Virus record (IMG/VR): IMGVR_UViG_3300045988_099736
Span: 1 to 15,861 of that record
Direction: 5' to 3' (one strand)
DNA: 15,861 bases
Source: a virus
The notes under the pieces are model-generated. The model did no database searches. It saw only the letters and a program-made list of their open reading frames with translations, and had not been told where the DNA came from. Made by a program: the position numbers and the translations under genes. Of the stretch, positions 1-15,861 are shown in pieces (the stretch's first letter is position 1; every line of letters starts with the position of its first letter).

Positions 1-152
1 GTCGACATAAAATAAAACGATATTTAGAACATTCCCCCATTCAGTTTGCACGGTTGACTAAAAAGAGTGAACACGAATAAAAATATTTTAAAAATACGCT
101 TGACATTTCTATGCGTGTGTGCTATTATATAATTACAGAAAGGAAAAGGAGG
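1..152. repeat. Left inverted terminal repeat (ITR-L)
   Basis: The reverse complement of 15710-15861 equals 1-152 base for base (checked by eye). Similarity continues at 16/19 positions to 171, covering the ATG and first codons. Confidence 0.97.
100..128 (+). promoter_or_regulatory. Sigma-A type promoter inside ITR-L, firing inward
   Basis: TTGACA (100-105), a 17-nt spacer, then TATTAT (123-128) preceded by TGc (extended -10). GGAGG at 148-152 and ATG at 161 follow. Confidence 0.8.
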
Positions 153-160
153 ACAAGAAA

Positions 161-478
161 ATGACTAAAAAGTACAGAGTGAACGAGAGCGAATATTTTA
201 ATTTGTATTCTATGTATGACCGTTTAAAGTGCATTGAGATTGATATGAGAGAGGACACAGAACACTCATACATAGAAAAGCAATGGGATGAAATAGAAGC
301 TCGAATAAGTGAGGTTGAAGAACTTATGGAAAAAGCCTATTGCGTAGGTGCTTTAGTAGACTGGGTGACATTAAAGAGAATTAGAGAGATTAAAGCGGAA
401 CGGCAGCTTATTAGATATAACAATTGTATGCAGCAGGGGGCAACAGAGAAAGAAGCGGCAATGGCATTTTTATTGTAA
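161..478 (+). CDS. Hypothetical early protein (105 aa)
   Basis: ATG at 161 lies 8 nt after GGAGG (148-152). The ORF-track start at 119 is a GTG inside the promoter and was rejected. No recognisable domain. Confidence 0.75.
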   Translation: MTKKYRVNESEYFNLYSMYDRLKCIEIDMREDTEHSYIEKQWDEIEARISEVEELMEKAYCVGALVDWVTLKRIREIKAERQLIRYNNCMQQGATEKEAAMAFLL

Positions 479-4001: not shown

Positions 4002-5336
4002 TTATTGCACCCCCTTTTTAACTGGTAACTCCTTTAGTAAAGCGTTTTCGCAACATAAAACCCCTCTAATTGATGCAAAAGCAAAATTATCAAGAGAGGA
4101 TGTCTCTCCGGGTGCGGCTAAACCGTAAACATTAAAACGGAACTGAATAACTGTTGGCAATCCGTCTTTATATTTATTTTCCGCTTGATAATAATAAATA
4201 CCATTGCCGCTGTTTGTCTCTATGCACAGCCACGCGTGCCACTCATTATCATTAGTGATTTCTACGTTGAAGCCAACTACTGCCGTCCACGTATATGGGT
4301 ATGTTTCAGTTGTTGGCTTTTCTGGTGGTGTTATACTCGTTACGCATTTTTTAATAAACCCGTGTGCACTTCTTCCAATTGTCCGCACTCCAAGTCCATT
4401 ACCAACGTTATAGGTATCATAATAAGTCGCGTTTTCGGTATCCCACCACAACGCATCCTTATTTTTTGCTTTGATTGCCTGACAAGTTTCTGCCATAACA
4501 GTGTCAAATTCCTGCGCGGTAAGGTGCAATTCTGCGTCCACCTGCATAACTTCGTCAAGTGCTCTGGCATGGGAAATCAGATCTCCACTTCCGGGACTGT
4601 TAACGCTTGCATCAAAAACGCCGTACATTTTGCAATAACTTTCCGCATCGAACGCACCCGCGCGGATATACAACGCTTTAAAATCTTCACAGTCCTTGTC
4701 AAAAGCCGGAAACCACGCATCGAACTGTCCACAAGTGATAGCGCACACTCTCAGAACATCGTATACATTATTTACAGTGTTTCCCACTCTGTCCCGGTAT
4801 CCGGTTGTCGGGTCAAAAATACGAAAACCATCTTCGTTTACTTCGTCAATCTCAAGACGCAGCTTTTCCAGCTGCTCTTCAACCCACTCTTTCAAACGTT
4901 CAACCGCAAAGTCTGTGTACTGCTCCAGATATGCTTTTGTCTCGTCAATCTTGCCGTTCAGCTGCGCAACGTCTTTTTCATGTGTAAGTTTGATACTGTC
5001 AGCATACGCCCGCAATTCTGAGATCAAAGTTTCAAGCCGCTTAACGTCTTTTGTATGCTCTGCCCAGTAGTATGCGTCCTGAGTGTCAATGTAGACGCGC
5101 AAGTCTGCCACAGTCTTATCAAGAGTTTTCAAAAGCTCTGCTTTTAATTCCGCCACTTTTGTGTCTGTATAATTTTGATAATTTGTCTCTAAGTCAGTAA
5201 GAAATTGAATAATCTGATTGATATTGTATGCAATCTTCTGCATCATTTCCAACTGACTAATAGACGCATCCCATTCAGATGGCAGTGATAAATAGGCGTT
5301 ATTAAAACATAGCTTTTCCGGTAACTTTTTATCCAC
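4002..5336 (-). CDS. Tail fibre / appendage (receptor-binding) protein, 444 aa
   Basis: The only start in frame near an RBS is a GTG, with GGAGG (5347-5351) 10 nt upstream. The N-terminal half is a long coiled coil and the C-terminal half is beta-rich (YYYQAENKY, WTAVVGFNVE). Its position after the collar genes is analogous to phi29 gp12. Confidence 0.6.
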   Translation of the reverse strand: MDKKLPEKLCFNNAYLSLPSEWDASISQLEMMQKIAYNINQIIQFLTDLETNYQNYTDTKVAELKAELLKTLDKTVADLRVYIDTQDAYYWAEHTKDVKRLETLISELRAYADSIKLTHEKDVAQLNGKIDETKAYLEQYTDFAVERLKEWVEEQLEKLRLEIDEVNEDGFRIFDPTTGYRDRVGNTVNNVYDVLRVCAITCGQFDAWFPAFDKDCEDFKALYIRAGAFDAESYCKMYGVFDASVNSPGSGDLISHARALDEVMQVDAELHLTAQEFDTVMAETCQAIKAKNKDALWWDTENATYYDTYNVGNGLGVRTIGRSAHGFIKKCVTSITPPEKPTTETYPYTWTAVVGFNVEITNDNEWHAWLCIETNSGNGIYYYQAENKYKDGLPTVIQFRFNVYGLAAPGETSSLDNFAFASIRGVLCCENALLKELPVKKGVQ

Positions 5337-8754: not shown

Positions 8755-10041
8755 TTAGCCTGTTATCGTCACGGCTTTTGTTGTCTGTACACTTGTCTGT
8801 CCTGCGACAACTGCTTTTAATGTTAATGTTTTTGCCGTTTCATTCGGGCTAACTTCGATCGTTGCGCTCTTGCTATCGCTTGCAACAATTCGTGTGCTGG
8901 TTGCGTTCGCTCCCTCTAAGGAGAAAATCACTCCACCATTTACCGGAGTTGTTGCGGCTGTATATTTACTCTGTGCGCCTTTTTCAATCGACTCCGCACC
9001 TGTGATCGTCACGGCTGTGTAATTCTGTACCTGATCGGTAGTAAGGGCAACCGCGTTATGGAATGGACTGGTAAAATAAATCTGCCATACGTGTAACCAG
9101 TAATTCCAGTACAGCTTTTCACCGTTAAAAAAATCGGATGTTTCAAACAACTGGTCGTAGATATTCAACCAGTCATCATCTGCAACAATTGCCAAAATTT
9201 CCGGGTGTCCGGGAATTTCTGGAATTACGGTGATTCTGCCTAAAATCTGCGCTTCGTCCATATGGAACGCATACGCAAGTGCCCGCACAGAAGTAACAGC
9301 GTCTGCTTTAGGTGTAATAAATACTCTCTGGCTTTTCCTAGCTGTTGTATTTAAAACCCCCGCAGCGTTGTAATTTTCCGATGGAAACAGTAAATTGTTT
9401 GACACAATACGCATGGTAGTCAAAAAATCCTGTGCGGTGTCCGCGTCAACAGGATCGACCGTGTGTACAAGCTTGACAAAACCGTTATCAAGCGCGGATA
9501 CGATTGCACCCATTGCGTAAAGCATTTCCGATACTTCGTTTCCGGTATACATGGAATCAATCACACGATCAACGAAATTTACCAGCCCCTGCGCACTGTA
9601 AAATGCGCTTCGCAGCATTTCACGATTCACTGTCTTTTTGAAAAACTCTTCGCGGTTTCGATTCATAAAAGCAACCGCGATATCGGGTTTTTCCTGTTTT
9701 AACATTGCCCAAGGGTCGGTATCCGAACAGAAAGAGTGCGCCGCTGCGATCTTTACCCAAACGGATTCAATTGTTTCTCCGTATTCCAGCATACCCCTTT
9801 TTGCGAACGCGAACGGGCTAGTGAAATACATTTTGTCGATCTTCTGCAGCGCCCAGACGTTTACGAGCTGGTTCATGAACCGATTCATAATAGGTTGATA
9901 CTGCATCATGATCTGCCCAAACTCTTTGATGTTCGTATTTGTAACTTCGGGAAGTAATCCCTCCCATTCTGTGCCTTTTAAACTGGCTCTAAAGCTATTC
10001 AACGCTAAAGGCACATTTTTTAAAACTCCTTTTACTGCCAT
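8755..10041 (-). CDS. Major capsid protein with C-terminal bacterial Ig-like (Big_2-like) domain, 428 aa
   Basis: It follows the scaffold gene and has a strong RBS (GGAGGT). The size is close to phi29 gp8. The C-terminal ~85 aa (TAVTITGAESIEKGAQSKYTAATTP...LTLKAVVAGQTSVQTTKAVTITG) look like a Big_2 fold, as in phi29 gp8. Confidence 0.8.
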   Translation of the reverse strand: MAVKGVLKNVPLALNSFRASLKGTEWEGLLPEVTNTNIKEFGQIMMQYQPIMNRFMNQLVNVWALQKIDKMYFTSPFAFAKRGMLEYGETIESVWVKIAAAHSFCSDTDPWAMLKQEKPDIAVAFMNRNREEFFKKTVNREMLRSAFYSAQGLVNFVDRVIDSMYTGNEVSEMLYAMGAIVSALDNGFVKLVHTVDPVDADTAQDFLTTMRIVSNNLLFPSENYNAAGVLNTTARKSQRVFITPKADAVTSVRALAYAFHMDEAQILGRITVIPEIPGHPEILAIVADDDWLNIYDQLFETSDFFNGEKLYWNYWLHVWQIYFTSPFHNAVALTTDQVQNYTAVTITGAESIEKGAQSKYTAATTPVNGGVIFSLEGANATSTRIVASDSKSATIEVSPNETAKTLTLKAVVAGQTSVQTTKAVTITG

Positions 10042-10054
10042 TTTTTACCTCCTT

Positions 10055-10309
10055 TTACAAGTCGAGAAAATCTTCTGTTTTGATTTCCTCTTTTTCCTCC
10101 ACTTCTTCTTTGTTTTCGGTTTTCGTGCCAGACAGAAAAGCGTCTGCATACTGTTTTCTAACGTCCGCTACTTCTGTTTCCAGACGGTCATTTTCGTCTG
10201 CAATTTCCGCAATCAAATTCAAAATCGCGGATTCATCCAGCGCACCCTCTTCAGGTGCATCAATCCGCGCGATCAATCGCGCTTTTGAAATTAAATCATT
10301 CCTTTTCAT
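10055..10309 (-). CDS. Scaffolding protein candidate (84 aa, acidic, helical)
   Basis: ATG at 10309 (MKRNDLI) follows the GGGAGAAAGGGA purine tract. The protein is highly acidic and lies directly upstream of the capsid gene, as gp7 does in phi29. The ORF-track extension to 10375 lacks an RBS. Confidence 0.6.
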   Translation of the reverse strand: MKRNDLISKARLIARIDAPEEGALDESAILNLIAEIADENDRLETEVADVRKQYADAFLSGTKTENKEEVEEKEEIKTEDFLDL

Positions 10310-10433
10310 TTTTTCCCTTTCTCCCGTGTGCGGTTTATAAGTAAGGGAAAACACGCGCATAATCCGATGCGCCACACAGACAAGCCGAATTCACACGGGG
10401 ATTTCCTGCCTATGCTGTAAGTTCTCCCTCTAT
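10310..10433 (-). promoter_or_regulatory. Structured ~125-nt leader or candidate small RNA upstream of the late genes
   Basis: Non-coding. It contains a GCGCAT-N6-ATGCGC hairpin (10355-10372) followed by GUGUUUU. A UUUUCCCUU tract (10343-10351) is complementary both to the SD region (10311-19) and, over its 10345-10352 part (GUUUUCCC, one G.U), to a 5' GGGAGAAC (10421-28). There is also an 8-bp long-range pairing between 10323-30 and 10392-99. Confidence 0.5.
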
Positions 10434-10439
10434 GGTTTT

Positions 10440-10468
10440 ATTATAGCTTCCTTTTGTACCGATGTCAA
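10440..10468 (-). promoter_or_regulatory. Perfect consensus sigma-A promoter for the structural (late) operon
   Basis: On the minus strand: TTGACA (10468-10463), 17 nt, then TATAAT (10445-10440). The ATPase TGA stop is embedded in the -35 hexamer. Confidence 0.8.
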
Positions 10469-11514
10469 CCCCTAATTCCTAAAAAATCCATGCCTATATT
10501 TTTACATTCCTGCGATTCAAACCGGAAATTCCCGGCATTAAATTGCTTTCTACACATCGACACTTGCGCGGATATTGCGCCTGTTAGACAAGTGTTTTCG
10601 TCATGATCTTTTGTGGATATGGCAAAAAGTCTGTGAAAATTTCTGTCTGCTTTTAACGATATATAATATCTTCCATTTTGTAGCATCCACAACCCATAAA
10701 AAAGACCATTGTGTTTTATTGTCATTAAATACCTTGCCCCGGCAAGATTCTGTTTTGCAATAAATTGCACATTGTCCAACAAAAAGATATTGTCAATACT
10801 ATAGTTAAAATAAGAAGCATCGGAGAAAGCACGATAAAATCCGTTTTGTTGTTTTTCCTCTGCTACGTATTTATTTCTATAAACTTCCATCACCCAACCA
10901 TGCCCGCGCATAAAATGAATACCGGATTGCCAGCGCTTATGAATCCCTAAAGCGACAAAATACGGATTCAATAACGAAACCATGTTGCTAACTAAAAAAT
11001 AAGTAAGTTTCCGTGTTAATTGTTCAAAACCTCTTCCAACTGCGTCATTGATTGCAAAAAACTTCGTGATCTCGTCCGCGCAATAGTCCCCGGTTTCGCT
11101 TTGGAACTCGTCAAGAAAAATATTATCTGCATCGTTAAAAAATGTAGATATTCGTTTCACTTTATCGACCATACTCAGTGCAATTACATATCCGCAAGAT
11201 ATTTCAAAATCTTCGGTCTTTATAAAAACTTCTGCGAATTTACCAGAACCGCTGGATACTGAATATAAATCGGTATTAGGAAATTTGTTTTTCACATCCG
11301 CCCAAAATGCAGGAATATAACTGTTTAATTCATCTTTTTTGCGAACTAGACAGATAAACTTTTTACTTTTATGCAAAAATTCATTGATTAAATATTCTTT
11401 CACGGCAAAAGATTTTCCGCCGCCTTTCGAGCCTGTTATAATAAAAATGTCGGGTGTATTGCCGTCTAAGTCTTTTGTTTTTAAAATACTGTCTAACCTG
11501 TAATGTTTTTCCAT
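10465..11514 (-). CDS. DNA packaging ATPase (phi29 gp16 type), 349 aa
   Basis: Walker A is IITGSKGGGKSF and Walker B is NIFLDEFQ. The size is about that of gp16. ATG at 11514 follows AAAGGGG. The ORF-track TTG start at 11529 was rejected. Confidence 0.88.
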   Translation of the reverse strand: MEKHYRLDSILKTKDLDGNTPDIFIITGSKGGGKSFAVKEYLINEFLHKSKKFICLVRKKDELNSYIPAFWADVKNKFPNTDLYSVSSGSGKFAEVFIKTEDFEISCGYVIALSMVDKVKRISTFFNDADNIFLDEFQSETGDYCADEITKFFAINDAVGRGFEQLTRKLTYFLVSNMVSLLNPYFVALGIHKRWQSGIHFMRGHGWVMEVYRNKYVAEEKQQNGFYRAFSDASYFNYSIDNIFLLDNVQFIAKQNLAGARYLMTIKHNGLFYGLWMLQNGRYYISLKADRNFHRLFAISTKDHDENTCLTGAISAQVSMCRKQFNAGNFRFESQECKNIGMDFLGIRG

Positions 11515-11531
11515 GTTACCCCTTTCCAATA

Positions 11532-11559
11532 AAAAAGAGGAACAATTGTTCCTCTTTTT
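11532..11559. terminator. Perfect 28-bp palindrome; terminator-like hairpin or operator upstream of the ATPase gene
   Basis: AAAAAGAGGAACAA/TTGTTCCTCTTTTT is fully self-complementary. It lies between the stop at 11571 and the ATPase RBS, and A/U tracts flank the GC core. Confidence 0.6.
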
Positions 11560-11570
11560 ATGCTGCCCTG

Positions 11571-12267: not shown

Positions 12268-12296
12268 ATAATAGCACAAACCTTTTAAAGTGTCAA
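12268..12296 (-). promoter_or_regulatory. Internal sigma-A promoter sharing the ITR promoter module
   Basis: On the minus strand: TTGACA (12296-12291), 17 nt, then TGcTATTAT (-10 at 12273-12268). The string TGTGCTATTATA is identical to the ITR promoters. The polymerase TGA stop is embedded in the -35. Confidence 0.75.
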
Positions 12297-14143
12297 CATC
12301 TTTTTGCGCGTAAAGTATAAAAATCTTCTACTAACACCATTCCGCCACTAATATATTTTGGTTTTAATTTTCCGCCCACTTTCAAGCCGATTTTAAAGTC
12401 CGTTATTGGGTGACTTGCTAAAAATAACTTTTTTGATTTTTCCGGCATCCCTGCACACTTGATCTCCCAGTGTCCTGTCACTTTTTTACCGTCCTCTTTT
12501 TGCACAAACTCTGCATATGTCTTTTGTCTTATAAATATAGCACTGCTCCAATTGCTTTCCCGTTTCCAGTGCAATAGCTCTGTAGCGTGTTCTTTTATCA
12601 TTTTCACTGGTTTTCCATCGTCCAGCATATGTATAGAGTCCGTGTCACTGTATACAAAGTTTTCATAATTAGCTTGTGCATGCGTTATGGTAAAATATCG
12701 GGCGTATGCTGTCACGGCTGCTCCCGCTGCGATATATAGCGTGTCTTTTTCATGCTCCGGGTGCAATTCAAAGCCTATGGAATCTGTTTCAGGGTCGATG
12801 TACGGCTCACGGTAAGAACTATTATCGTTAATGGCAAGCCGTCCGTATAAATTATTCAAAAACAATTTTGCTTCTGTGCGCTCTCCCTTGTCTTTTGTAG
12901 TCATTTTTATTTTCATATAGTGATTGATATAAGTATCAAAAAGACCTATTGCGCCATGAAAATAACAACCGTCTAAAATCTCTAAGTCATACACTTCATA
13001 ATGCTCCAATAAAAGAAAATAGTCTGTCATAAAAAGCGTTAATTCCGGTTTTGCTTCCTCTTTTTGTCCCTCTTTATTTGTAAAATATCTATAATATTTT
13101 CCGCGATAATAAATATCAGATGTTTCCAACCATTGCGTAGAGTTATACCGATAGTCTCCTTTAATCTGCACAGTCGGCAAAAAACCGCCTTTTATCTTAA
13201 ACCGACAGCGCAATCTAACATAAAACGGATAGACGCGCGTTTCTAAGCATTTATAGGGGATTTCTTTTTCGAAAAAAATTGGCTTGCCTGTTGGATAATA
13301 GTTCCCGCTTTTACTGTGCATAACACTGGGATAAAGAGAATTAACATCAAACGTCATGCCGCTCTGCGTGATATGTTTTCTTTGCTTGTATTTGTAATAG
13401 CAATAACCTCCTTTGTAAGCTTTACGAATATATTCATCAACATTATCACTTCCACGCTCATATTTTATTAGCACTATATCTTTTAAGTTCGGAAAAGCTG
13501 CGTTAAAATCCATAGCGTCAAATTTGTTTTTAAACTCGTCCATACAGCACGAACCAATTGTCAATTTATCATGCCCGCTTTTTATCATAACTTCCAGCGC
13601 TTCCTTCAATACATAGATATCGTTAATAATATAAGCATATTCTTCCGGTGTTATTTCACAGTTTGCGTGACGCATTCCTACATATTTCATTTCTAACTTC
13701 CTATGCTGCGTATTAAATGCAGAACCTATTTGAGCTAATGTCATGGGCATCAGTTTAACGCTGTCCCTAAACTCGATCACTGTGTCAAATTTTGGTTTAA
13801 CTGTAACGGTATACCATTTATTTGTATCCGAAATTAGGGTTTTAAACTCTTTTGCGTTCATGTCTTTATTGCGGGCATTATTCCATGTATAGCCGTTCTT
13901 TAACAGCCAATACACAATAAAAGCGCCATCAAAACGCAGATTATGAAAATAACAGAGAACGTTTTTATTCAAATTAAAAATATCGTTCAAAAAATCTTCT
14001 ATGTTACCCCGCAAGTGCGGTTGCTCTGTAAATAATTCTATCCATGCAGCGCTCCAAACTTCTGTTGATGTCTGACCGGGATACACTGTTGTTTCAAAGT
14101 CTGCCGCTATTATAACGGGTTTTTTCGCTGATTTTTTTGGCAT
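12293..14143 (-). CDS. Protein-primed family B DNA polymerase (phi29 gp2 type), 616 aa
   Basis: Motifs found: ExoI AADFETT, ExoII FHNLRFDGAFIV, ExoIII PEEYAYIINDIYVLKEAL, motif A GMTFDVNSLYPS, motif B KLFLNNLYGRLA, pre-C AVTAYARYFTI, motif C VYSDTDSIHM, KxY RQKTYAEF, and KCAGM. All are collinear with phi29 DNAP. Insertions occupy the TPR1 and TPR2 positions. Confidence 0.97.
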   Translation of the reverse strand: MPKKSAKKPVIIAADFETTVYPGQTSTEVWSAAWIELFTEQPHLRGNIEDFLNDIFNLNKNVLCYFHNLRFDGAFIVYWLLKNGYTWNNARNKDMNAKEFKTLISDTNKWYTVTVKPKFDTVIEFRDSVKLMPMTLAQIGSAFNTQHRKLEMKYVGMRHANCEITPEEYAYIINDIYVLKEALEVMIKSGHDKLTIGSCCMDEFKNKFDAMDFNAAFPNLKDIVLIKYERGSDNVDEYIRKAYKGGYCYYKYKQRKHITQSGMTFDVNSLYPSVMHSKSGNYYPTGKPIFFEKEIPYKCLETRVYPFYVRLRCRFKIKGGFLPTVQIKGDYRYNSTQWLETSDIYYRGKYYRYFTNKEGQKEEAKPELTLFMTDYFLLLEHYEVYDLEILDGCYFHGAIGLFDTYINHYMKIKMTTKDKGERTEAKLFLNNLYGRLAINDNSSYREPYIDPETDSIGFELHPEHEKDTLYIAAGAAVTAYARYFTITHAQANYENFVYSDTDSIHMLDDGKPVKMIKEHATELLHWKRESNWSSAIFIRQKTYAEFVQKEDGKKVTGHWEIKCAGMPEKSKKLFLASHPITDFKIGLKVGGKLKPKYISGGMVLVEDFYTLRAKRC

Positions 14144-14178: not shown

Positions 14179-14805
14179 TTAATATTCGCCCCAACCGTTT
14201 TCATAGTCGAATGAATCTAAAAATTCTTTTTGCCGATCTCGTGATAAACCTAAGTTATCTGACAATTCCGATAAAAATTCAGGGACAATTGATTGCCCGC
14301 CATTTTTTTCTGCGTCATAGCTTTCATGGATAGTTAGCCAGGGTACAGCCTCTAATGCTTCCGCTGTTGCTATTTTCCCGTTCTTATTTAAGCTATTTTC
14401 TAGCCATTGTCTGCACATGCGCTCAGCTACCGGAAAATATGTGTATGTCGTATTTATAAAATTCTCTATAATAATATCCGCACTAGAGGGATAATCTACT
14501 ACACGCCCTCTTTTCTTTTTTGCTTTTCGTCTTTTTGACTTGTATTCTCCCCGACCTATTTTCTTTTTTGCTTTTCGCCTTTTTGACTTGTAACCGCTGT
14601 CTGTTATTAAAGATTCCGCTGTTTTTTGTATGGCATCCGGTGTTATTTTTTTCAGCCGCTGCACATCTGCTTTTGTAGGCTGCTTCTTTGCTTTTGGAAT
14701 GCCAATAGATATTGCATAGCCCTGCGCAAGCAATTTATTTACTTGCTTTTCAATTCTTTTAAGTTCTTGCGCGTATACTTTCGCGTACCTGTTTTTTCTT
14801 GCCAT
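14179..14805 (-). CDS. Candidate terminal (priming) protein, 208 aa
   Basis: It lies directly upstream of the protein-primed polymerase, as phi29 gene 3 does. The N-terminus is basic and helical and begins MARKNR (phi29 TP begins MARSPR, from memory). It has an internal Lys/Arg-rich repeat and an acidic C-terminal third. AAGGAGG lies 9 nt before the ATG. Confidence 0.6.
   Translation of the reverse strand: MARKNRYAKVYAQELKRIEKQVNKLLAQGYAISIGIPKAKKQPTKADVQRLKKITPDAIQKTAESLITDSGYKSKRRKAKKKIGRGEYKSKRRKAKKKRGRVVDYPSSADIIIENFINTTYTYFPVAERMCRQWLENSLNKNGKIATAEALEAVPWLTIHESYDAEKNGGQSIVPEFLSELSDNLGLSRDRQKEFLDSFDYENGWGEY
14511..14592. repeat. Tandem direct repeat inside the terminal-protein candidate (two 34-nt copies, 48-nt period, 33/34 identical)
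   Basis: TTTTCTTTTTTGCTTTTCG(T/C)CTTTTTGACTTGTA occurs at 14511-14544 and 14559-14592. It encodes YKSKRRKAKKKIGRGE and YKSKRRKAKKKRGRVV (aa 72-103). Confidence 0.95.
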
Positions 14806-15319: not shown

Positions 15320-15520
15320 TTAAATTTTCTCGTTAATTACCGTCCCAATTGCGTTTAATATGTCATTAGCTTCCTTTTTAAGTTCATCAAGTCTATTGTC
15401 TATTATAATTTTATTAAATCTATATGTTTTATTTTCAAAATCTTTTAACTGTTTATAATATGTTATCTTAGCAGTTACCATTGCATATCTTTCTGTCAAT
15501 GAATCATAATTTCTTTCCAT
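15320..15520 (-). CDS. Hypothetical early protein (66 aa, helical)
   Basis: ATG at 15520 (MERNYDSL) lies 8 nt after GGAGG (15529-33). The ORF-track start at 15574 would overlap the upstream gene and lacks an RBS. Confidence 0.7.
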   Translation of the reverse strand: MERNYDSLTERYAMVTAKITYYKQLKDFENKTYRFNKIIIDNRLDELKKEANDILNAIGTVINEKI

Positions 15521-15533
15521 TTTGTTGTCCTCC

Positions 15534-15701
15534 TTAAAATTCACTGTCCAGAACATTCTGGAAATCCGGTGCAAGTTCTAAGTAACGATTTAAAAATTCT
15601 TCATTGGTGCACGGCGCTAATTCGAACGCAACCAATTCGCGGATATCATCGTCCATCATGTTCACGATTGCTTCCCAATACTTGTCTAAATTTTTAGTCA
15701 T
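15534..15701 (-). CDS. Hypothetical early protein (55 aa, strongly acidic)
   Basis: ATG at 15701 is the mirror of ATG 161 and shares its ITR-borne RBS. It has 13 Asp/Glu against 4 Lys/Arg. The ORF-track start at 15743 lies inside the promoter. Confidence 0.75.
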   Translation of the reverse strand: MTKNLDKYWEAIVNMMDDDIRELVAFELAPCTNEEFLNRYLELAPDFQNVLDSEF

Positions 15702-15709
15702 TTCATTGA

Positions 15710-15861
15710 CCTCCTTTTCCTTTCTGTAATTATATAATAGCACACACGCATAGAAATGTCAAGCGTATTTTTAAAATATTTTTATTCGTGTTCACTCTTT
15801 TTAGTCAACCGTGCAAACTGAATGGGGGAATGTTCTAAATATCGTTTTATTTTATGTCGAC
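15710..15861. repeat. Right inverted terminal repeat (ITR-R)
   Basis: It is the exact reverse complement of 1-152. Confidence 0.97.
15734..15762 (-). promoter_or_regulatory. Sigma-A type promoter inside ITR-R, firing inward
   Basis: It is the mirror image of 100-128: TTGACA (15762-15757), 17 nt, then TGcTATTAT (-10 at 15739-15734). Confidence 0.8.

Follow-up and report, generated by a model that had tools for sequence, protein, structure and literature searches.

The virus record IMGVR_UViG_3300045988_099736, analysed here over its whole length of 15,861 nt (the window), raises the question of what is encoded in the 155 nt (10310-10464) that separate its gp16-type DNA encapsidation ATPase gene from a scaffold-like open reading frame (ORF). 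An initial annotation had described a structured leader ahead of the late genes and had put forward an attenuator or a Shine-Dalgarno (SD) switch as the leading interpretation, with an analogue of the phi29 packaging RNA (pRNA) as the alternative. It is the alternative that is favoured by the present analysis: with a probability of roughly 70%, the gap encodes a divergent prohead/packaging RNA of the pRNA type, which the head-gene operon carries as its 5' leader. The feature, a structured RNA conserved among relatives, has the architecture and the loop co-variation that define a packaging RNA, in a new sequence family and a new genomic context. What the analysis shows directly are the promoter signature and the fold, the complementarity of bulge and loop with its co-variation, and the recurrence of such RNAs beside the gp16 genes of relatives. 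Reviews of 2016 and 2024 have treated pRNA as exclusive to phi29 and its relatives among the Bacillus phages (PMC5066667, PMC11476376; also PMC6266182, PMC9965433), and in the accessible (non-paywalled) literature no gp16-adjacent RNA family is described, the sole pRNA outside the Bacillus phages being a prediction for phage Cp-1 (PMC6266182).

Except for the inverted terminal repeats (ITRs), the gap is the largest non-coding stretch of the window, the remaining minus-strand intergenic gaps all being of 90 nt or less, and it opens with a consensus promoter; on both points the initial annotation was correct. The elements that delimit it are the following:

10463-10468, minus strand: -35 hexamer TTGACA, invariant in 15 of 15 close relatives.
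10440-10445, minus strand: -10 hexamer TATAAT, 17 nt after the -35 hexamer and invariant in the same 15 close relatives.
10310-10336, minus strand: linker to the scaffold-like gene, with an AU-rich stretch, a small CCG-NACA-CGG hairpin and a purine-rich ribosome-binding region.

The combination TTGACA-17-TATAAT (10468-10463 and 10445-10440) is the sole 12/12 promoter match in the window, and the TGA stop codon of the ATPase gene (10467-10465) falls within its -35 hexamer. Judging from the spacing to the -10 hexamer, transcription should start at about A10433. Across the close relatives, in which both hexamers are invariant, the spacer is conserved at only 4 of its 17 positions and variable at 13, while its length stays at 17 nt with a single exception of 18 nt; invariant hexamers around a variable spacer are the signature of a working promoter. 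The scaffold-like ORF begins with an ATG at 10309. The possibility of the gap being itself a coding sequence was considered and rejected, since relatives have indels of 1, 2 and 5 nt that break the in-frame GTG at 10375; the indels of these sizes found in the linker likewise indicate that it is not coding. No match to the gap region was returned by blastn among 50,697 phage records.

The first part of the predicted transcript folds into a three-way junction, whose parts have been named after those of phi29 pRNA:

10337-10433, minus strand: pRNA-like structured RNA of about 97 nt, in which helices A, C/E and D meet in a three-way junction.
10421-10430, minus strand: 5' strand of helix A, GAGGGAGAAC, from the fold, with one-sided, pair-preserving changes (C-G to U-G, G-U to G-C).
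10343-10352, minus strand: 3' strand of helix A, GUUUUCCCUU, from the fold and the alignment of variants.
10405-10415, minus strand: 5' strand of helix C, in which four pairs have changes on both sides.
10374-10384, minus strand: 3' strand of helix C, partner of 10405-10415.
10399-10404, minus strand: CE-type bulge AAAUCC on the 5' side, of which AAUCC (10403-10399) complements the D loop and co-varies with it.
10385-10398, minus strand: hairpin E, with stem CCG/CGG and loop UGUGAAUU, the latter carrying a GUGAA-like motif also found in the E loops of relatives.
10355-10372, minus strand: hairpin D, GCGCAU-CGGAUU-AUGCGC, with its loop CGGAUU at 10366-10361 (GGAUU at 10365-10361).

For the 97-nt RNA, the minimum free energy (MFE) structure coincides with the centroid (-36.4 kcal/mol, 27% of the ensemble) and exceeds shuffled controls in stability (z = -3.55), while the plus strand of 10337-10433 reaches only -23.9 kcal/mol (z = -1.54). 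Helix A could be extended by pairing AUA (10433-10431) with UAU (10339-10337) across a 3-nt bulge, ACU (10342-10340); this bulge, which exists if AUA and UAU pair, sits on the 3' strand, and a 3-nt bulge is found on the same strand in the RNA of distant relatives. The bulge segment AAUCC is the exact complement of the D-loop segment GGAUU, a match that the initial annotation had not listed. When the 97-mer was shuffled with its dinucleotides preserved, 27 of 20,000 sequences reproduced the topology and none combined it with a bulge/loop complementarity of at least 4 nt.

The conservation of this fold was followed within the window clade using 14 IMG/VR contigs (L001-L014; L-numbers denote loci of relatives) and further metagenome contigs, which together gave 18 distinct RNA variants. 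In the IMG/VR contigs the ATPase protein is 90-98% identical and the DNA of the RNA region (10300-10480) 84-97%, and pairing is nevertheless kept. Across the 18 variants, 97% of the cells form standard pairs, as against 34-58% when the partners are slid by 1-3 columns, and helix A is paired in 99% of cells. Six pairs are altered on both sides, four of them in helix C (C-G to U-A, C-G to A-U, and an A-U/G-C/G-U alternation) and two in the bulge/D-loop pairing, and the resulting covariation score was reached by none of 500 shuffles; an alignment of 13 sequences agrees. Helices A and D vary solely to or from G-U wobble pairs, changes which fit an RNA made from the minus strand and are incompatible with its plus-strand complement. 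The stem of helix E is invariant and thus provides no covariation evidence. As regards the loops, all the variants with the D loop GGAUU have the bulge AAAUCC, and all those with GGGAU have a CCC-rich bulge, mostly AUCCC (5 bp), with UUCCC (4 bp) in L008 and L133 and three G-C pairs only in L149. For the kissing helix, the alignment of 13 sequences has full compensation in two of five columns and pairing in 98% of cells.

An RNA of the same architecture is found repeatedly beside the gp16 genes of distant relatives, where the ATPase is about 33-40% identical to that of the window and where the DNA 3' of its stop codon is the part that folds; the stretches of 559 relatives were confirmed in IMG/VR. 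This RNA is mostly of 111-119 nt, with the ends GGUAUC...GAUAUA, a helix A mostly of about 25 bp whose 3' strand has a 3-nt bulge, an E loop mostly of the G-U-G-A-A-A type and a D hairpin of the form CGGU-loop-ACCG. In most of these relatives it is followed by an intrinsic terminator, often with convergent genes beyond it. It resembles the window RNA in lying directly 3' of a gp16-type ATPase gene, in its three-way junction, in a 5'-side bulge complementary to the D loop, in a G-U-G-R-A-A-like E loop and in the strand of the helix-A bulge, and a U-rich stretch 3' of hairpin D is a feature of the junction throughout the family. It differs in its conserved ends and long helix A, neither of which is present in the window RNA, as well as in its own terminator and usually convergent genes, whereas the window RNA runs into the scaffold gene.

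The pairing of the ~115-nt RNA is likewise maintained, with 316 compensatory cells as against 97 +/- 8 in shuffles and with 90% of cells paired as against 36-50% with slid partners. A covariance model, R2, was built from the RNAs of 28 distant relatives; as MAFFT aligned outer helix C and helix D inconsistently, the model holds 25 of about 40 pairs. R2 has matches in 58 of 74 loci of relatives, and 55 of the 58 lie on the ATPase strand and begin no more than about 240 nt past its stop codon. The other three are on the opposite strand, about 135-250 nt past the stop codon (L030 3688-3800, L035 3681-3793 and L043 3686-3798, all minus); in these loci the ATPase-RNA neighbourhood has been kept and the orientation has not. 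One further locus, L086, was scored weakly (E = 1.8), at the expected place, and the matches of R2 elsewhere in the window were at chance level (E = 1.4-6.9). Two cultured phages carry such an RNA, without annotation in their GenBank records. In Clostridium phage CS229P2 (L096, OP172773) it lies at 2572-2686, and the ATPase gene and the RNA form an isolated plus-strand pair amid minus-strand genes. In Clostridium phage HM2 (L097, LT600745) it lies at 2541-2650, adopts the same topology in its MFE structure, has its own promoter (TTGACC-17-TAAGAT) and shows a bulge/D-loop complement of 7 nt (GUAGUCU/AGACUAC).

The complementarity between bulge and D loop was also examined across lineages, in 40 non-redundant RNAs, by comparing each bulge (four were assigned manually for the permutations) with the 32 nt downstream of helix C, a segment which contains hairpin D and was not picked for complementarity. 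The longest Watson-Crick run averages 4.23 nt in cognate combinations and 3.31 nt in non-cognate ones, and the cognate mean was reached in none of 100,000 permutations. The kissing pairs themselves are diverse by lineage, and include GACA/UGUC, AGGC/GCCU, AGCA/UGCU, UGCC/GGCA, ACUCA/UGAGU, CUGUA/UACAG, AAACA/UGUUU, GGAA/UUCC, AUGCA/UGCAU, ACGC/GCGU, GGGA/UCCC, UGGGA/UCCCA and UGCAA/UUGCA, as well as the AAUCC/GGAUU and AUCCC/GGGAU of the window clade. The window RNA adjoins an ATPase gene and has the topology and the cognate bulge/D-loop match that are found in the RNA of distant relatives.

Three lineages (L022, L041 and the L045 type) share with the window the order ATPase-RNA-scaffold-capsid on one strand, their capsid proteins being 52-56% identical to that of the window. 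Their RNAs have the window topology with unrelated helix sequences, and have in common the E hairpin AGCG-N6-CGCU and a GGGA/UCCC kissing pair of a polarity opposite to that of the window; the promoter of L041 is again the consensus TTGACA-17-TATAAT. The L045 type (L113-L127 and L130; about 360-520 of the 1000-1800 slice) comprises 16 contigs whose RNAs are 100% identical and therefore carry no covariation information. In the same type, UUGCAAUCCCGCAUUU of the D-loop region and AAAUGUGGGAUUGACGAA, which immediately precedes the scaffold SD, are near-perfect complements over 16 nt, and this could represent an alternative structure.

The pRNA of phi29 is a 174-nt transcript with its own promoter and terminator, trimmed to 120 nt; it is needed for DNA packaging, is present on proheads and not in virions, and contacts the ATPase through the CCA bulge of its helix A. 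The window RNA resembles it in the order of its elements (A, C, 5' bulge, E, C', short junction, D, A'), which is that of the RF00044 consensus, in the potential 3-nt bulge of helix A, in having a sigma-A-type promoter of its own, in the conservation of structure despite very low conservation of sequence, and in belonging to a phage that is also phi29-like, with a gp16-type ATPase. Furthermore, the CE bulge, complementary to the D loop and co-varying with it, corresponds to the "interlocking loops" feature of pRNA (PMC5066667). The Bacillus pRNAs, among them those of GA-1, SF5, M2 and B103, show 12% sequence similarity, and their domain I measures 117-120 nt (PMC5066667). Other traits set the window RNA apart: its U-rich junction is between D and A, not between C and D; its gene is situated between those of the ATPase, which it follows directly, and the scaffold, while that of phi29 is at the left genome end; and the host is not a Bacillus, the nearest cultured relatives growing on Clostridium. 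Common descent of the window RNA with Bacillus pRNA is plausible.

Several observations weigh against a packaging RNA. The Rfam check suggested in the initial annotation was run, and RF00044, which scores phi29 pRNA at 145 bits as a positive control, found no match at E <= 10 in the whole window or in the 201-nt region alone, nor at E <= 1 in the loci of 11 relatives, so that membership of the window RNA in RF00044 at the sequence level is not supported. Searches with R2, filters off, gave no match to the window gap, L022, L041, the L045 type, L031, HM2 or phi29, and R1, the covariance model of the window clade, gave none in distant relatives; with R2 and Rfam both negative, the link between window RNA, 115-nt RNA and Bacillus pRNA rests on position, topology and the kissing signature. 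At 97 nt, with a helix A of 10 + 3 bp, the window RNA is shorter than the 117-120 nt and about 25 bp of phi29, and its helix-A bulge is on the 3' strand, whereas the CCA of phi29 is on the 5' strand. It also lacks domain II and a terminator of its own, none having been found in the window between the RNA and the scaffold-like gene, and it forms the leader of the head-gene operon. The N-terminus of the window connector contains one arginine (residue 3) and no RKR-type cluster like that of phi29 gp10. Finally, the window clade has just two kissing classes, which may reflect one evolutionary event, and intramolecular and intermolecular pairing of the loops are indistinguishable from sequence.

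The closest parallel outside the Bacillus phages is the putative pRNA of Streptococcus phage Cp-1, which, in the account given by PMC6266182 of Martin et al. 1996, is a prediction only, and which the pRNA covariance model fails to find (PMC6266182). It has in common with the window RNA that it was proposed as a pRNA in a phi29-like phage from outside the Bacillus group, and that pRNA models miss it. The Cp-1 record (L172) has outward-facing promoters in its 236-bp ITRs, at 150-177 (minus) and 19166-19193 (plus), and the putative pRNA is probably located at the genome ends, not beside the ATPase gene. The late leader of Cp-1 (4740-4875; 135 nt, from PL1 to the scaffold gene) was tried as a pRNA candidate and rejected, its fold not being pRNA-like.

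Among the other explanations, a cis-regulatory leader, riboswitch-like or protein-responsive, is the one closest to the switch proposed originally, and it is considered unlikely. In such a leader GUUUUCCCUU would pair alternatively with its 5' strand or with the purine-rich SD region, or hairpin D and its U-run would terminate transcription, the scaffold and capsid genes being gated in either case, and the bulge/D-loop match would be an intramolecular tertiary contact. Purine-riboswitch-type junctions offer a precedent: they are three-way junctions with loop-loop contacts, and the window RNA shares with them the location in a 5' leader, a tertiary contact between arms and a closing helix whose 3' strand is able to pair elsewhere, although its contact is bulge-to-loop and not loop-to-loop. 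In the window, L022, L041 and the L045 type the RNA does belong to the 5' leader of the operon that contains the head genes, and the elements listed in the initial annotation all exist: GGGAGAAC (10428-10421) pairs with GUUUUCCC (10352-10345), which corresponds to helix A; UUUUCCCUU is complementary to AAGGGAAAA, and CCCGUGUG to CACACGGG; and GGGAGAA occurs twice, at 10428-10422 and 10325-10319. The second and third of these complementarities, of 9 and 8 bp, are uncommon by chance, the helix-A 3' strand can pair with downstream SD-like purines in all four collinear lineages (in a shifted register, UUUUCC of the pyrimidine tract with GGAAAA of the purine-rich SD, the pairing is possible in every relative), and the 16-nt complement of the L045 type also lies beside an SD. 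Conservation, however, does not follow these alternative pairings. In 14 distinct relatives neither the 9-bp nor the 8-bp match shows any compensatory change, and both are broken where variable, the central C-G of the former in 9 of the 14 and one pair of the latter in 11, whereas helix A is maintained and is retained in the whole-leader MFE structure with the ribosome-binding region open. The hairpin at 10372-10355 was described correctly, being D, and together with GUGUUUU it is scored terminator-like by the scan; the U-run is the conserved 3' strand of helix A. The all-Rfam scan of window and gap (E <= 10) returned chance-level matches only, with no riboswitch or leader family, and no covariation points to an expression platform in the window. 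Moreover, leader position is limited to the window and its three collinear lineages; in most of the 58 matched loci the equivalent RNA is a stand-alone gene, self-terminated or on the opposite strand, many times with convergent genes, and in those loci it cannot serve as a leader. Scaffold translation could be subject to a secondary effect in cis, with nothing positive in support of this.

A structured RNA with some other role appears just as hard to favour, if not slightly more so: it could stabilise the late mRNA at its 5' end or serve in the processing of that mRNA, or could be a small RNA that acts in trans and has no part in packaging, directed, for example, at host or anti-defence targets, its likeness to pRNA being then convergent. 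Stable 5' structures are known to shield mRNAs in Gram-positive bacteria, sequence homology to Bacillus pRNA is undetectable, and the length of helix A and the strand of its bulge are unlike those of phi29. A stabiliser, however, needs no three-way junction with a co-varying bulge/loop pair, and the RNA stays with the gp16 gene despite changed gene order, as in the lone plus-strand pair of CS229P2; the 111-119 nt of the relatives' RNA also fit pRNA domain I (117-120 nt; PMC5066667). That the promoter is real and no functional RNA exists, the complementarities being due to chance or to signals at the DNA level, is very improbable. A longer, 135-nt stretch does have a z of just -1.9, but the RNA alone reaches -3.55 as against -1.54 for the other strand, the covariation and the changes restricted to G-U are specific to the minus strand, and no shuffle among 20,000 combined topology and complementarity. 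It is thus the pRNA analogue, supported by topology, by the co-varying bulge and D loop and by the equivalent RNAs beside distant gp16 genes, that is retained of the original proposals.

If the gap encodes a packaging RNA, its mode of action could be pictured as follows. Host RNA polymerase would start at about A10433 from the consensus promoter overlapping the ATPase stop codon, with no need for a phage activator, and the first ~97 nt of the transcript would fold with helix A formed from the 5' and 3' ends, the C/bulge/E arm and hairpin D. By analogy with phi29, ring formation between molecules, binding to prohead and ATPase, and a role in packaging would be expected: AAUCC in the bulge of one molecule would pair with GGAUU in the D loop of another, closing an RNA ring on the prohead portal, the E/C/D region would face the prohead, helix A would dock the gp16-type ATPase, and the motor would package the protein-primed, terminal-protein-linked genome. 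As no terminator precedes the scaffold-like gene, the head-gene transcript would begin with the RNA; and as transcription runs into the scaffold and capsid genes, the RNA would be cleaved out, would work attached or would arise by inefficient termination. In the case of processing, the cleavage site would be the AU-rich linker at 10336-10331. The supply of RNA would thereby be coupled to that of head proteins.

Beyond this locus, it seems fairly probable, with rather less assurance than for the window RNA itself, that packaging RNAs are general partners of gp16-type ATPases in the protein-primed podoviruses of gut Clostridia, encoded next to the ATPase gene and invisible to existing models, and that in the window lineage the RNA has become fused as a leader. 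The RNA part of this motor would then be widespread among human-gut phages, and structure-function studies, as well as RNA nanotechnology with its reliance on the phi29 junction, would gain at least dozens of natural junction and kissing-loop variants. The leader-embedded arrangement would be a new mode of expressing packaging RNA, in which a single consensus promoter supplies both the packaging RNA and the scaffold/capsid mRNA, implying RNA processing or a leader with a dual role. The cultured Clostridium phages CS229P2 and HM2 allow direct tests.

With regard to its genomic setting, the 15.9 kb of the window make up the complete linear genome of a phi29-like podovirus, with ITRs of 171 nt, and its membership in this group is borne out by PF05894, PF05352, PF25622 and PF03175 and the corresponding PHROGs, together with the ITRs. 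Almost all its genes are on the minus strand, in the series terminal protein, family-B DNA polymerase, p6-like double-stranded-DNA-binding protein, single-stranded-DNA-binding protein (SSB), ATPase, gap, scaffold-like ORF, capsid, tail knob and connector, which includes:

14179-14805, minus strand: candidate terminal-protein gene, by position, with no family match.
12293-14143, minus strand: protein-primed family-B DNA polymerase gene, part of the minus-strand series.
10465-11529, minus strand: gp16-type DNA encapsidation ATPase gene (PF05894, 2e-32; PHROG 2150, 1e-94), directly upstream of the RNA.
10055-10309, minus strand: acidic ORF of 84 aa, putative scaffold by position and size alone, with no family match.
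8755-10041, minus strand: phi29-type major capsid gene (PF25622, 1e-80), downstream of the RNA.

By their ATPase, the nearest cultured relatives are phages CS229P1-3 of C. symbiosum (34% identity) and Clostridium phage HM2 (32%), and the close uncultured relatives come from human faecal metagenomes. The search for ATPase homologues found hundreds at 30-40% identity and none between 40% and 97%.

Some further observations were made in the window. Between the SSB gene and the ATPase start, at 11530-11560, there is a 13-bp perfect palindromic hairpin (AAAAAGAGGAACA / UGUUCCUCUUUUU), flanked on each side by A/U runs and resembling an intrinsic terminator that would work in both directions, close upstream of the ATPase gene; its loop is too short for the terminator scan, and it surfaced as weak Rfam matches of the plastid psbA 3' untranslated region type. 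The ITRs (1-171 and 15691-15861) hold inward-facing 11/12 promoters, at 100-128 (plus) and 15762-15734 (minus), and a third copy of this promoter, 77% similar, precedes the p6-like gene at 12268-12296 (minus). The terminal ORFs at the two genome ends begin with the same 11 duplicated codons (MLLYNYRKEKE). Finally, the left end (172-767) has two small plus-strand ORFs (within 119-744), paralogues of the right-end minus-strand ORFs 15534-15743 and 15320-15574, which are closed by a 12-bp bidirectional terminator (730-756) facing a lysin-like gene at 768-1538.

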